From the IMG/VR virus record IMGVR_UViG_2667527666_000009: a stretch of 46,534 bases of DNA; one strand, 5' to 3'. The DNA is from a virus (taxonomy: Duplodnaviria > Heunggongvirae > Uroviricota > Caudoviricetes). Shown here piece after piece: positions 19,705 to 36,366 of this stretch (its first letter is position 1; the number at the start of each line of letters is the position of its first letter). Position numbers and translations under genes: made by a program. The notes under the pieces were generated by a model that was not told the DNA's origin, searched no databases, and was given only the letters and a program-made list of their open reading frames with translations.

Positions 19705-20730
19705 TTACGCCAGTTGAACGGACACGAACTCATCAGGGTCAGCCAGCAGCATCAGCGGTGCTGACTGAATCATGGTGAACTCACGCGCCGGGTCGCCGGT
19801 GGTCACCCAGTTTTTCGGGTAACGGGCAGAGGCGTTAATGCCTTCGCGCTGTGCGTCCGCATCCTGAATGCAACCATAGGTGCGCAGACCGCGTGCCTGA
19901 GTGTTCCCCAGCACCATCGTGTTGTCCGGCAGGAAGTTCTTTTTGACGCCGTTTTCCACGTACTGTCCGGAATACACGACGATGGCCACATCGCCATACA
20001 TTCCCTTATAAGACACCGCTTTGCCCAGGTCTTTTACCGCTGTCTCCAGCTCGGAATGAGAGCCGCGACGGGTATCCAGCTTCTCCTTGACGGCCTTGAA
20101 GGAACGGAACAGCGCCCAGCCTTTCGGATCAAACACGATGATATTCACCACACCGCTGGCGTTCAGCGCGTAGGCTTCGATATCGTCGGTCGGGTCATAC
20201 GTGGACTTGTCACGCTTGCTCCACTCTGTGCCGCCGGACTGCGTGATGTTATTCGCCGCACTGCGGCCCATATCCACCTCAACCGGATCGAAGGCTTCAC
20301 CGGTCATGGTGTATTTGCCCTTAAGCACGGCAGAAACTGCCTGCATCTCTTCGACCTGGGCAATCGCCAGATTTTCATCCAGCATATTCTGCCGAATAAT
20401 ACGGCGACGACGGTAAGCCGGGTCAGCCAGGTTCTGCGGATCTTCATCCGGCAGGCGACGCAGGGTCATCTGCGGATTCACCTCATGCTTGGGTTTGACA
20501 TAACCCGGCGTAAATTCAGAGGTGGAGCCGCCACGGGATCGGATAACCTCACCGGAAACAATCGGCGAAACGTACAGCGCCATGTTTACCAGTCCCGGAA
20601 TTTGTGAGAGATAGACTTTTTCCGTGGTGAAAGGATAGGTTTCACGGAAAAACAGGCGCAGAAACAGCGGATCGAACTTAAAGTGATGCTGGGTCGATGC
20701 CAGTAATTCTGCAGTTGTATATACAGACAT
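19705..20730 (-). CDS. E: major capsid protein E
   Basis: 341 aa; MSVYTTAELLASTQHHFKFDPLFLRLFFRETYPFTTEKVYLSQIPGL... matches lambda gpE. Confidence 0.95.
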   Translation of the reverse strand: MSVYTTAELLASTQHHFKFDPLFLRLFFRETYPFTTEKVYLSQIPGLVNMALYVSPIVSGEVIRSRGGSTSEFTPGYVKPKHEVNPQMTLRRLPDEDPQNLADPAYRRRRIIRQNMLDENLAIAQVEEMQAVSAVLKGKYTMTGEAFDPVEVDMGRSAANNITQSGGTEWSKRDKSTYDPTDDIEAYALNASGVVNIIVFDPKGWALFRSFKAVKEKLDTRRGSHSELETAVKDLGKAVSYKGMYGDVAIVVYSGQYVENGVKKNFLPDNTMVLGNTQARGLRTYGCIQDADAQREGINASARYPKNWVTTGDPAREFTMIQSAPLMLLADPDEFVSVQLA

Positions 20731-26686: not shown

Positions 26687-26863
26687 TGCTCATTCCACGG
26701 ACAAAAACAGAGAAAGGAAACGACAGAGGCCAAAAAGCTCGCTTTCAGCACCTGTCGTTTCCTTTCTTTTCAGAGGGTATTTTAAATAAAAACATTAAGT
26801 TATGACGAAGAAGAACGGAAACGCCTTAAACCGGAAAATTTTCATAAATAGCGAAAACCCGCG

Positions 26864-27776: not shown

Positions 27777-27927
27777 ACCATAACGTCCGGCTTCTCTCAC
27801 TCCTGAGCCGGACTGCATTGGTTTAATAAAAACCATCAACAATTGTGATTTAGATATTCGGAACCATTCAAATATAACAAAACCCCGTAAAAACGAGGTT
27901 TATGGATAAATTTTATTATTGAATACA

Positions 27928-28102
27928 TCAGATTAAATTAATCTTGACATCATAGCTTTCAAGACCCGTCATTTTTTCCCGTGCGGTAAACTGAATACTG
28001 GTAACTTCTTTCCCGGTCTTTTTCTTAAGTTCAATAATTTTTTTTTGTTATATATTCAGAAATATCTGCTTCTGCTTTTGTTTTTAAGTTTTCAATATTC
28101 AT
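27928..28102 (-). pseudogene. gnsB: gnsB-like gene interrupted by a frameshift in a 9-nt homopolymer
   Basis: minus-strand translation from ATG 28100..28102 gives MNIENLKTKAEADISEYITKK then a stop after the run of nine T (plus 28038..28046); the other frame continues IIELKKKTGKEVTSIQFTAREKMTGLESYDVKINLI, GnsA/GnsB-like to the stop at 27928..27930. Confidence 0.6.
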
Positions 28103-28273
28103 CATTTCCTCTTTTAGTCTGTTATGACTTTCCAGTTACACAGTAAGTCGATTATATGGTGCAAACGTGTAAAAGATAAGATGAAACATCGCAATAATCA
28201 ACATACGATAGTCTAAATTTTACACAAACAGACAAAGAGAATTTTCCTGAATTATCAATGCAATAGCATCAAA

Positions 28274-28504
28274 TCAACTCAAGAGCCTTATTGCTGCTTC
28301 CAGAATTTCTTCTGAAGTAACATGTCGATCCGCGGCTACATAAATGACTTTATGATCTCCGGTCAGAGATGGAAACCCTGCGGCCATTACAGTAAGGTGT
28401 GTTTTTTCGCCATTTGGATATTCACGCATGATGGTGTTAACTCCAGTCATCGCTGGCACTACCACTGCTGGTTCAGAGTTAAAAAAAACTATGATTTTTT
28501 TCAT
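28274..28504 (-). CDS. hypothetical protein
   Basis: ORF 28274..28546; start taken at MKKIIVFFNSEP (ATG 28502..28504); no family recognised. Confidence 0.4.
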   Translation of the reverse strand: MKKIIVFFNSEPAVVVPAMTGVNTIMREYPNGEKTHLTVMAAGFPSLTGDHKVIYVAADRHVTSEEILEAAIRLLS

Positions 28505-28775
28505 GATGTTACCGTAGTATGTGAGTATCCATCGAATAGACACCAAGCAAAAAAGCTCCCGAAGGAGCCTTCATTTTCACTTTTTTAAATCCAACGACAG
28601 ACGGCTGGCATTTAAGTATTGTGAAATATTATCAAATGTAATCATCATTGATTTACAAAAGATACATTTTGCCCCGAAAGGATTCATGTCAGAAACATCA
28701 AAAGATGATGTTCTATACTGGGAACCATGACAACACGGGCATCTAAAGTGAATATGGTTTGTAATATTGTCTACC

Positions 28776-28988
28776 TCAAAGCGCCACAACATGAACAGCG
28801 GCAGGACCTTTAGGTCCGTTCTCAATACCAAATTCAACTTCCTGATTCTCAGTTAATGTTTTGAAATCGTTGCTCTGAATTGCTGAGAAATGGACAAACA
28901 CATCTTTGCTGCCATCTTTCGGCGTGATGAAACCAAAACCTTTTTCAGGGTTAAACCATTTCACTAAACCAGTCATTTTGTTAGACAT
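28776..28988 (-). CDS. cspI: cold shock protein (CspA family)
   Basis: 70 aa; [38 protein letters not shown] with RNP1/RNP2 motifs. Confidence 0.9.
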
Positions 28989-29350
28989 AATTATTACCTT
29001 TTGAAGAAATTAGCCCTTGGGCAGAATGGTCCGAAAAAAAATATCAGAGAGAAAAACCAACAAGGAAATCTCAAGAGGTACAAATAATAAAATTATAACA
29101 ATGACTGCTTCAGATAAATTTGTAACAAACCAGAACACCATTAACGCATGATTAACCACCCATAGCAAGGATTACTTTTGTAAAGAAAAACACAGCAATG
29201 AAAGAATAGCTTTATTTATTAATAAAACGTGTCATTCTGATTAAGACCTTTTATCTTACCCTTAAGATTTCAGGAATTTTGGCTCATGGAAGAGTCCTTT
29301 TTATTTAAATTTTACATTCCGCGATGTAAATGTTCCGATTTAATATTACC

Positions 29351-32388: not shown

Positions 32389-32809
32389 GCTATATTAAAG
32401 CTTTAATTTCAGGCCCCATCGGATCACACATGGAGAGTTTTTATGAATAACCCCGTCTGTCTTGATGACTGGTTGATTGGCTTTAAAAGCTTATGCTGTA
32501 CTTTGGCCGTAATAGCTCTGCTAATAATATAATAAGCAGACTCATTGTGTTTAGGGACATTGTACTGGAAGAAAACATTTTAAACATCAGGCAAATAACC
32601 AAGTCACCAGCTAAATAATAAGTTAACAGACATGAGTCCCGGGATGAGATTCAACATTACCATTGCCCCATTTAAAGCACAAAACCCGCTCATCAGCGGG
32701 TTTTCTACTTTTTCTTAACGTCGGGTATACAAAGCCCATCGTTGAAAAAATTTTATCCATATTTTTTGAAAAATGCAAACATCATGTCGCCATCTTCAGC
32801 AAAAATCAT

Positions 32810-33116: not shown

Positions 33117-33170
33117 TGAACCGCCCCGGGAATCCTGGAGACTAAACTTCCTGAGAAAGAGGTAAACAGG

Positions 33171-33497
33171 ATGACTAAAAATACTCGTTTTTCCCCCGAA
33201 GTCCGTCAACGGGCAGTCCGTATGGTTCTGGAAAGTCAGAGCGAATATGACTCACAATGGGCGACAATTTGTTCCATTGCTCCAAAGATTGGCTGTACGC
33301 CGGAGACTCTGCGTGTCTGGGTTCGCCAGCATGAGCGGGATACCGGGGGCGGTGATGGAGGGCTCACCACCGCTGAACGTCAGCGTCTGAAAGAGCTGGA
33401 ACGTGAAAATCGTGAACTGCGCCGCAGTAACGATATCCTTCGCCAGGCTTCCGCTTATTTTGCGAAGGCGGAGTTCGACCGCCTCTGGAAAAAATGA
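33171..33497 (+). CDS. IS629 transposase OrfA (HTH)
   Basis: 108 aa; [23 protein letters not shown]... matches recalled IS629 OrfA; ends at an A6 tract (33489..33494) where the -1 frameshift to OrfB would occur. Confidence 0.85.
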
Positions 33498-34384
33498 TGC
33501 CACTGCTGGATAAGCTGCGTGAGCAGTACGGGGTCGGACCGCTATGCAGCGAACTGCATATTGCCCCGTCAACGTATTACCACTGTCAGCAACAGCGACA
33601 TCATCCGGATAAACGCAGTGCCCGTGCGCAGCGCGATGACTGGCTGAAGAAAGAGATACAGCGCGTATACGATGAAAATCACAAGGTATACGGTGTGCGT
33701 AAAGTCTGGCGTCAGTTGTTACGGGAAGGTATCAGAGTGGCCAGATGCACTGTGGCACGTCTCATGGCGGTTATGGGACTTGCCGGTGTTCTCCGGGGTA
33801 AAAAGGTCCGTACGACCATCAGCCGGAAAGCCGTTGCCGCAGGCGACCGCGTAAACCGTCAGTTCGTGGCAGAACGACCTGACCAGCTGTGGGTGGCTGA
33901 TTTTACTTACGTCAGCACATGGCGGGGCTTCGTCTATGTGGCGTTCATCATTGATGTGTTTGCCGGATACATCGTGGGGTGGCGGGTCTCATCGTCCATG
34001 GAAACGACATTCGTGCTGGATGCACTGGAGCAGGCGTTATGGGCCCGTCGACCGTCCGGCACGGTCCATCACAGTGATAAAGGTTCTCAGTATGTATCGC
34101 TGGCCTACACACAGCGGCTTAAGGAAGCCGGATTACTGGCATCAACAGGAAGTACAGGCGACTCGTATGACAACGCGATGGCGGAGAGCATCAATGGTCT
34201 TTACAAAGCGGAGGTAATACACCGTAAGAGCTGGAAAAACCGTGCAGAAGTGGAACTGGCCACACTCACGTGGGTGGACTGGTATAACAATCGACGATTG
34301 CTGGAAAGGCTGGGCCATACTCCTCCGGCAGAAGCAGAAAAAGCTTATTATGCTTCCATCGGAAACGATGATCTGGCAGCCTGA
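33494..34384 (+). CDS. IS629 transposase OrfB (DDE integrase core)
   Basis: 296 aa in the -1 frame relative to OrfA; DDE-type catalytic region. Confidence 0.85.
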
Positions 34385-34718
34385 GTTCACAGATAAAACA
34401 CTCTCCAGGAAACCCGGGGCGGTTCACCACGAGTTTAACTGACAACCCATGATCAATTATGAATTGCAACTATTTCTGTAGTCACTTTTGTGGGGACAGT
34501 CCACAAAACTGCCAACTTCCGCTTCTTGCTCTTAGCGGACATTAGCATAGGCTATTTACCATAACGCCTCATTACGCGCACCGCCCAGACTGACTCAGCG
34601 CGTTTCTGGCATATCCCCGGTAAAACAAGTAACAAACCACCCGAAAATGAACACCAGAAACGCGACTTAAGAATCTACCCTATGAATGGATATGCACTCA
34701 ACCGAATCGATCTTGGTT

Positions 34719-36032: not shown

Positions 36033-36366
36033 GAAAAATCCCCCAGAGAATTGTCTGGGGACATTTTAGAATGGTTCAAAGGGGACATTACAGCTTGGTG
36101 TTAACAATAGCCTGCTTCTCCGTGCCTTTCGGCACGTAAGAGGCTAACCTACATGTGTCTAGCATGAAATTGGCCTCAGATTAATGTTAAGCGTCTTGCA
36201 GGACGCGTAATGTTAACTGGGGCTTTTCTCTATCTGCCGTTGGTGTCCATGCCCGAGGCAGATAGCCTCAAGCACCCGCAGTCATTCTACTTAACTAAGA
36301 TTTCCCCGCAAACCGTTTTTGTCCAGCACAGTAAATATCCAACTAAACCAATGGAGTTCGCTGTAT

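Follow-up and report, generated by a model that had tools for sequence, protein, structure and literature searches.

The Qin-type lambdoid prophage in the stretch of DNA analysed here (46,534 nt in full length, referred to below as the window) carries a copy of gnsB whose reading frame is broken at a run of nine adenines, at a site where the norm for Escherichia coli is a run of eight. The single additional base leaves the first 21 residues of GnsB in the original frame and displaces the remainder, and in our view it is probably a genuine mutation, a +1 frameshift from replication slippage by which a non-essential gene is inactivated. The main competing explanation, a homopolymer miscall in the deposited assembly, is considered below, together with proposals in which the altered run would be retained for a regulatory purpose.

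Results and Discussion

A GnsA/GnsB-family reading frame divided at a homopolymer

The plus strand at 28038..28046 reads exactly TTTTTTTTT, i.e. nine T (A9 on the coding minus strand), edged by A and G; direct reading and a scripted recount gave the same figure, in agreement with the count in an earlier sequence-only reading of this DNA. Translation of the minus strand from the ATG at 28102..28100 yields MNIENLKTKAEADISEYITKKNY, an ORF of 23 codons that ends at a TGA at 28033..28031, with a second in-frame ATG one codon upstream (28105..28103) from which the ORF would encode 24 residues. The same reading had described a GnsB-like N-terminus that stops after the run and had predicted that removing one base would restore a 57-codon ORF of the GnsA/GnsB family, and both descriptions hold. 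Deletion of one A gives a 174-nt, 57-codon ORF encoding MNIENLKTKAEADISEYITKKIIELKKKTGKEVTSIQFTAREKMTGLESYDVKINLI and ending at 27928, and the repaired product covers profile positions 1-54 of 54 of PF08178 (GnsAB_toxin) with a score of 120.3 bits (cut-off 27; E=3.1e-35), as against positions 1-21 only, with 37 bits, for the 0-frame product as encoded. Addition of two A's (A11) also restores the frame, in this case with one extra lysine in the product (KKK). The features of the locus are as follows.

27880..27901, minus strand: intrinsic-terminator-like hairpin followed by a T-tract, just downstream of gnsB (1 site against 0.3 expected in shuffles)
27928..28102, minus strand: gnsB of a Qin-type prophage, frameshifted allele or pseudogene (175 nt against 174; PF08178 match; PGAP labels)
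27928..28037, minus strand: displaced C-terminal 36 codons and stop, IIELKKKTGKEVTSIQFTAREKMTGLESYDVKINLI, in the +1 frame, with no start codon of its own before M44
28031..28102, minus strand: truncated 0-frame ORF, 23 codons and TGA, which keeps the N-terminal 21 GnsB residues (Pfam positions 1-21 of 54)
28038..28046, minus strand (T9 on plus): A9 homopolymer; the species norm is A8, read ACA AAA AAA ATT = T-K-K-I
28107..28111, minus strand: intact GAGGA motif, 4 nt upstream of the ATG at 28102, resembling a Shine-Dalgarno sequence and probably serving as one

There is no intact single ORF of about 57 codons at this position, as a stop closes the 0 frame at codon 24 and the 36 C-terminal codons follow in the +1 frame. 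The locus is a member of the GnsA/GnsB family by descent, that is, a pseudogene or frameshifted allele, and not an intact coding gene. The A9 run is the longest homopolymer of the window, all others being of 8 nt or less; an argument from the rarity of such runs was dropped, since at least one 9-nt run occurs in 64 of 100 dinucleotide-preserving shuffles. The observation is meaningful because the homology is split across two frames and not because of run length itself. No co-transcribed gene is evident downstream of gnsB, and a scan with Rfam recovered no RNA family overlapping the gene.

The gene is gnsB of a Qin-type prophage

A 1001-bp stretch around the site was searched against 5,426 complete E. 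coli genomes and found matches in 3,436 of them, beneath which the annotated features are ynfQ/ymcF, ynfR, ynfN, gnsB and ydfO. To hundreds of E. coli genomes annotated as ynfN-gnsB-ydfO this stretch is 99.9-100% identical, apart from one gap. The gene order is that of K-12, with the gene between ynfN and ydfO in the Qin cold-shock cluster, and apart from a single gap the 1001 bp are identical to those of A8 genomes, all of which is as expected of an ortholog of K-12 gnsB. In K-12 MG1655 that gene (b1550, formerly ydfY) is an intact 174 nt and is assigned to the 'cryptic prophage Qin'. The gene of the window is gnsB itself in a Qin-type lambdoid prophage; thus, the earlier designation as a gnsB homologue was correct as to family and can be made more precise, the surrounding 1 kb being the common E. 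coli allele save for the extra A.

The window represents a fuller version of the Qin prophage at the same chromosomal site, bounded by ydfJ and the integrase and with a complete lambda-like head and tail module. Strain XJ55, which also has a complete lambda-like head and tail module, has an intact 174-nt gnsB annotated at nearly the same coordinates. Over 21,926 bp that take in the A9 run, scaffold KQ087962.1 (GCA_001030635.1) and the window are 100.000% identical, and no gene has been called between ynfN and ydfO in that assembly.

Several further features of this prophage and its relatives were observed. An IS3-family element occupies window positions 33119-34427 (with an ALIL pseudoknot, Rfam RF01497, at 33452-33568) in place of the segment ydfT (Q antiterminator)-ydfU-rem-hokD-relBE-ydfV-flxA, which is present in XJ55 and FORC 064; with this replacement the antiterminator of the late genes has gone from the prophage. 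A match to the sok antitoxin RNA is left at 36106-36277. Three near-identical relatives (GCA_015177105.1, GCA_043345835.1 and GCA_049908595.1) diverge from the window at 20495, inside the major capsid gene, and beyond this point carry a P4-like satellite element with AlpA, SSB, a D5-type primase and its own Phage_cap_E and head-decoration homologues, which suggests recombination between phage and satellite capsid genes. Among the database records, one labelled E. coli DH5alpha (NZ_CP026085.1) carries a complete gene for the large terminase subunit behind nohA, and its ynfN is 231 nt long; K-12 MG1655 Qin has instead a nohA-stfQ junction and a 156-nt ynfN, and at this locus the record does not look like a K-12 derivative.

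Eight adenines are the species norm

The length of the run was surveyed across public genomes in two ways: 1) RefSeq complete genomes were searched with 87-90-nt probes having exact 40-nt flanks, for which a single indel lowers identity below 99%; 2) GTDB representatives, metagenome contigs and IMG/VR were scanned with a variable-gap pattern. RefSeq complete genomes gave 1425 records with A8, 41 with A7 and 4 with A9; IMG/VR gave 107, 8 and 2 respectively; 53 metagenome contigs comprised 52 with A8, one with A7 and none with A9; and the GTDB representatives contributed 3 with A8. Pooled, these amount to 1587 A8, 50 A7 and 6 A9 alleles (n=1643), so that A9 accounts for 0.37%, the single-ORF A8 form for about 96.6% and the frame-disrupting forms for about 3.4% of sampled alleles; A10 was found neither in RefSeq complete genomes nor elsewhere in the pooled counts. 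A8 is the species norm. Comparison of tract length in related genomes had been recommended in the sequence-only reading, and its outcome, A8 in nearly all other E. coli, speaks to the norm of the species and not to the source strain. That reading had also raised the possibility of a slippage-prone tract, which is borne out in that the site is an indel hotspot with A7, A8 and A9 alleles all present in public genomes. As a side observation, one contig recovered from a GTDB representative (JAGZPX010000007.1, 22.9 kb, 'MAG: Veillonella parvula') bears gnsB in its E. coli Qin surroundings, matching the flanks exactly, and is almost certainly a mis-binned E. coli contig.

In all four RefSeq genomes with A9 (FORC 064, WS4437A-1, O22:H8 154 and N196), PGAP labels the identical 175-nt allele 'gnsB ... 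frameshifted'. Protein-level occurrences were sought in a collection of 15 billion proteins. In this collection 1000 contigs or more, drawn from NCBI, IMG, Logan and ENA, encode the 43-residue product of the A7 allele, MNIENLKTKAEADISEYITKKLLNLRKRPGKKLPVFSLPHGKK, and it is often deposited as 'protein GnsB'; a second 43-residue variant (N5D) occurs on 224 contigs. Of the variants that would preserve the frame, A11 is absent from this collection and A5 is represented on one contig. The 23- and 24-residue peptides of the A9 allele occur once each, and as they are below the usual gene-calling length these occurrences do not constitute a census.

A9 occurs on more than one background

Haplotypes were defined over the flanking 2 kb with the tract masked. 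The commonest of these is associated with A8 in 14 loci, A9 in two genomes and A7 in one, and A9 is seen on at least four flanking haplotypes, in N196 within a differently built prophage backbone. Across the 5.6-7 kb in common, the A9 genomes do not resemble the window more closely than K-12 does. Since their haplotypes, IS content and backbones differ, the RefSeq A9 genomes represent independent events or calls; judged on flanking haplotypes, A9 in general is recurrent. An A9 locus (L177) that seemed to have the rearrangement breakpoints of the window does not have them: it retains ydfT and resembles FORC 064.

The window has rare flanking SNPs at 26774, 26803 and 28788, and all three are shared only by two loci, L140 and L205 (GCA_000350885.1), both with A8. 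Because the loci with all three rare SNPs are A8, the A9 of the window is a derived state and, among its nearest haplotype relatives, private to GCA_001030635.1. Two near-identical relatives (GCA_032550965.1, with 1 mismatch in 16.7 kb, and GCA_015177105.1, with 6 mismatches in 20.5 kb) have contigs that end or diverge before gnsB.

A real mutation or a miscalled homopolymer

We favor the interpretation that the ninth A is carried by the DNA itself and was not introduced by the assembly. No Ns occur in the window, its other three 8-nt runs are of modal length, and in comparison with the intact relative XJ55 gnsB holds the only uncompensated coding indel. A run of four T at 2328, considered as a second private homopolymer change, was rejected as it is common to GCA_015177105.1 (which aligns with zero gaps) and others.

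The alternative is that the strain truly has A8 and an intact gnsB, and that the deposited assembly has one A too many through a homopolymer miscall; we regard this as less likely. Homopolymer length is a classic failure mode and a known weak point of several sequencing platforms; the scaffold-level, gap-free, Mb-scale record of GCA_001030635.1 might point to short reads with mate pairs. The closest relatives by flanking haplotype have A8, as a miscall would predict, and A9 is scattered singly over unrelated backgrounds. Furthermore, two of the genomes with a non-modal gnsB run each have another private one-base homopolymer change within 0.5-5 kb: O22:H8 154 (A9) has a ynfR frameshift from A6 to A5 at a distance of 500 bp, and the K-12 derivative ER1709 (A7) has an A6-to-A5 change at the position equivalent to window 32750, 4.7 kb away, neither it nor the A7 being found in MG1655, in which gnsB is A8. 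These private changes suggest residual homopolymer errors in the two assemblies and show how noise of this sort can imitate the pattern. A frameshifted ynfN in ER1709 had also been regarded as a sign of assembly error, an argument rejected as MG1655 carries the same A7 in that gene; the change at 32750 still stands. Calls other than A8 are more frequent in IMG/VR isolate-derived contigs (10/117) than in metagenome contigs (1/53), and A9 is seen in 0/53 of the latter.

Against a miscall, the rest of the 46.5-kb window has no other private homopolymer change or broken gene, and FORC 064 and WS4437A-1, both with A9, are free of other private indels across 16-22 kb. Tract-length alleles are natural at the site, with A7 occurring on contigs from all sources, and at a neutral A8 run nearby A9 and A7 reach 7% and 16%, which indicates that real +1 and -1 events are common at such runs. 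The three options initially offered for the run (inactivation, a slippage-prone tract or a sequencing error) are narrowed in part: the site is a hotspot, its A9 is private and derived, there is no conserved programmed site, and a real mutation is more probable than an assembly error.

Proposed mechanism and consequences

GnsA and GnsB, of 57 residues each, are known from overexpression: according to passages in bioRxiv 10.1101/2024.03.27.586906 and PMC10607373 that cite Sugai et al. 2001, it raises the proportion of unsaturated fatty acids and rescues cold-sensitive mutants, and in those passages it is said to suppress fabA6(Ts), the cold sensitivity of secG-null strains and related membrane-fluidity defects. 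The chromosomal paralogue gnsA encodes a protein identical to GnsB in 38 of 57 residues, and a conserved FTAREKMTGLESYDVKI block, common to GnsA, lies in the displaced C-terminal part.

We propose that A8 expanded to A9 by strand slippage in DNA replication, either in the strain or in its very recent ancestors. The extra base would shift the frame after Lys21 and bring in a stop two codons later, such that a 23-residue N-terminal fragment would be made instead of the 57-residue GnsB. Because the A9 allele would supply only the first 21 native residues, without the FTAREKMTGLESYDVKI block, loss of function is to be expected. As gnsB appears to be monocistronic with its own terminator, no polar effect would be expected, and the outcome would be the loss or near-loss of a non-essential accessory gene.

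Traces of full-length GnsB might still be formed if RNA polymerase were to drop one A or add two, which is the least favorable kind of slip for the E. coli enzyme. With this polymerase, slippage on A runs of less than 8 was below detection; deletion-type rescue reached 10% on T8, whereas none of the poly(A) runs assayed showed it, and insertion slippage at A7 stood at 0.39% (PMC6260861). Rescue would thus probably be at trace level at most. Two ribosomal routes were set aside: a -1 slip on A_AAA_AAA leads into a third frame (…KKKLLNLRKRPGKK…, then a stop) and not into that of GnsB, and a +1 shift would give the needed frame, but it would presumably have to occur without a known stimulator here.

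Could the altered run be functional?

If A9 is real, the gene might be leaky, a case of what Baranov et al. 2005 termed a 'pseudo-pseudogene', in which RNA polymerase slippage yields functionally relevant amounts of A8 or A11 mRNA and hence GnsB or GnsB with one additional Lys. That work described frameshifts that turn a non-slippery 8A into a slippage-prone 9A, with an example from E. coli, and noted that in many genomes coding regions begin to show selection against A/T runs when these reach nine (PMC1088944). The change from A8 to A9 in gnsB matches this class exactly, the promoter-proximal parts, Shine-Dalgarno motif, start codon and terminator are intact, and a transcript with A11 would be translated in frame, with KKK inserted. 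Nevertheless, the slip required is of -1 or +2 nt within a sense-strand poly(A), for which the deletion rates are undetectable and the A7 insertion rate is low (PMC6260861), and the ribosomal -1 slip does not reach the GnsB frame. Moreover, as A9 is rare and is not fixed in a lineage, nothing points to its having been selected. We accordingly consider a leaky gene of this kind improbable.

A related proposal, that the gnsB run acts as a low-frequency tuning knob in which A9 and A7 are reversible OFF or 'dimmed' states and A9, by slippage of the RNA polymerase (-1 or +2 A), leaks some GnsB as a heritable knock-down, appears more improbable still, and none of our results lends the 'dimmer' reading of A9 positive support. 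Were it true, the A9 allele would be a toxin-like modulator of lipid homeostasis that is leakily knocked down, and not a dead gene.

Least credible of all is a phase-variable switch, in which the run would be kept so that gnsB toggles at high frequency between ON (A8) and OFF (A7, A9), for example in controlling a toxin-like activity: both OFF lengths are natural and recur on different backgrounds, and PGAP and Pfam label the family 'addiction module toxin', but nearly all sampled genomes are ON, the run is of only 8 nt (A6 in the paralogue gnsA), in-frame variants are almost absent, and two other A8 runs in the same loci vary significantly more.

This last comparison rests on the survey loci, in which a length other than the modal one was found in 11/173 for the gnsB run, 33/148 for an A8 run in the cspI leader and 23/144 for one in ynfN. 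The gnsB run is the less variable in both comparisons (Fisher p=3.6e-5 against the cspI leader and 0.0098 against ynfN, from counts that are not phylogenetically independent). Runs of 6-7 nt are almost invariant in these loci. A phase-variable locus would be unusually unstable and have ON and OFF forms that are both common, and gnsB, with OFF alleles in the small minority given above, has neither property. The counts fit purifying selection on the gnsB frame, as far as can be judged from such comparisons, and not selected instability.

The two comparison runs deserve mention in their own right. The ynfN run (window 28481-28488, minus strand) is A7 in 21/144 and A9 in 2/144 survey loci; it is A7 in K-12 MG1655 and in ER1709, in the latter of which PGAP calls the K-12-type allele 'frameshifted', and it is because of this A7 that ynfN is annotated with 51 residues in K-12 as opposed to 76 in most genomes and in the window. 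The run in the cspI 5' UTR (window 29034-29041), inside a match to the Rfam cspA-thermoregulator at 28749-29134, is distributed as A7/A8/A9 = 23/115/10 and is the most length-variable homopolymer of the region.

Significance

The biological weight of the finding is very small, as gnsB is small, accessory and part of a cryptic prophage and the cell is expected to tolerate its loss, and there is nothing new in its kind: the A9 allele is already in RefSeq, where PGAP flags it, and the class of A8-to-A9 'pseudo-pseudogenes' was described in 2005. More generally, 8-nt A/T runs in this prophage are hotspots of one-base length change, real or technical, that create or destroy small ORFs, as illustrated by gnsB (A7/A8/A9), ynfN (A7/A8) and the cspI leader (A7/A8/A9). 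Two lessons for annotation follow: an A7 frameshift product has been widely deposited under the name 'protein GnsB', and a homopolymer frameshift in a single genome is not interpretable without reads.

Comparison with known systems

The closest counterpart of the gene is K-12 gnsB, with which it shares its neighborhood (cspI-ynfQ/ymcF-ynfR-ynfN-gnsB, with ydfO-ynfO-nohA alongside), and it differs in one additional A in the A8 run, a length of 175 instead of 174 nt and a product cut at 23 residues. Outside the tract, the repaired protein has the very sequence of GnsB of the WP_001019606.1 type. The prophage, for its part, keeps the full head and tail module that has been lost from K-12 Qin.

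Among the variants at the same site, the RefSeq A9 genomes are identical to the window over 89 nt of tract and flanking sequence and carry the 175-nt allele that PGAP calls a pseudogene, but they differ from it in the haplotype around the tract, in IS content and in prophage backbone, and A8 genomes are at least as close to the window. The A7 allele resembles A9 in being a one-base length change of the same tract that likewise destroys the GnsB C-terminus; it differs in direction (-1), in the wrong frame that is entered, in being much commoner and in having a product long enough for gene calling.

With respect to functional slippage, the T. thermophilus dnaX gene (A9), the orfA-orfB junctions of IS elements (A9/A8 runs) and Shigella mxiE (PMC1088944) resemble the gnsB allele in having nine A/T within a coding region at a frame junction, as the A9 of gnsB indeed does. 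At programmed sites, run length and two-ORF organisation are conserved among homologues (Baranov et al. 2005, PMC1088944), and in dnaX, the IS elements and mxiE the run and the two-ORF layout are so conserved. In gnsB, instead, 1587 of 1643 alleles (96.6%) are single-ORF A8, A9 is private, and the homologous site of gnsA is A6 (CAA AAA ATC as against ACA AAA AAA ATT); since gnsA has only A6 there, the run does not appear to be a conserved programmed signal. The 'pseudo-pseudogenes' of Baranov et al. (Genome Biol 6:R25) are the nearer parallel, sharing with gnsB a change from A8 to A9 in an otherwise intact gene whose orthologs in other strains are single ORFs, but differing in that a useful product formed by slippage is unsupported for gnsB A9, for which the required slip is disfavored by the E. 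coli RNA polymerase (PMC6260861).
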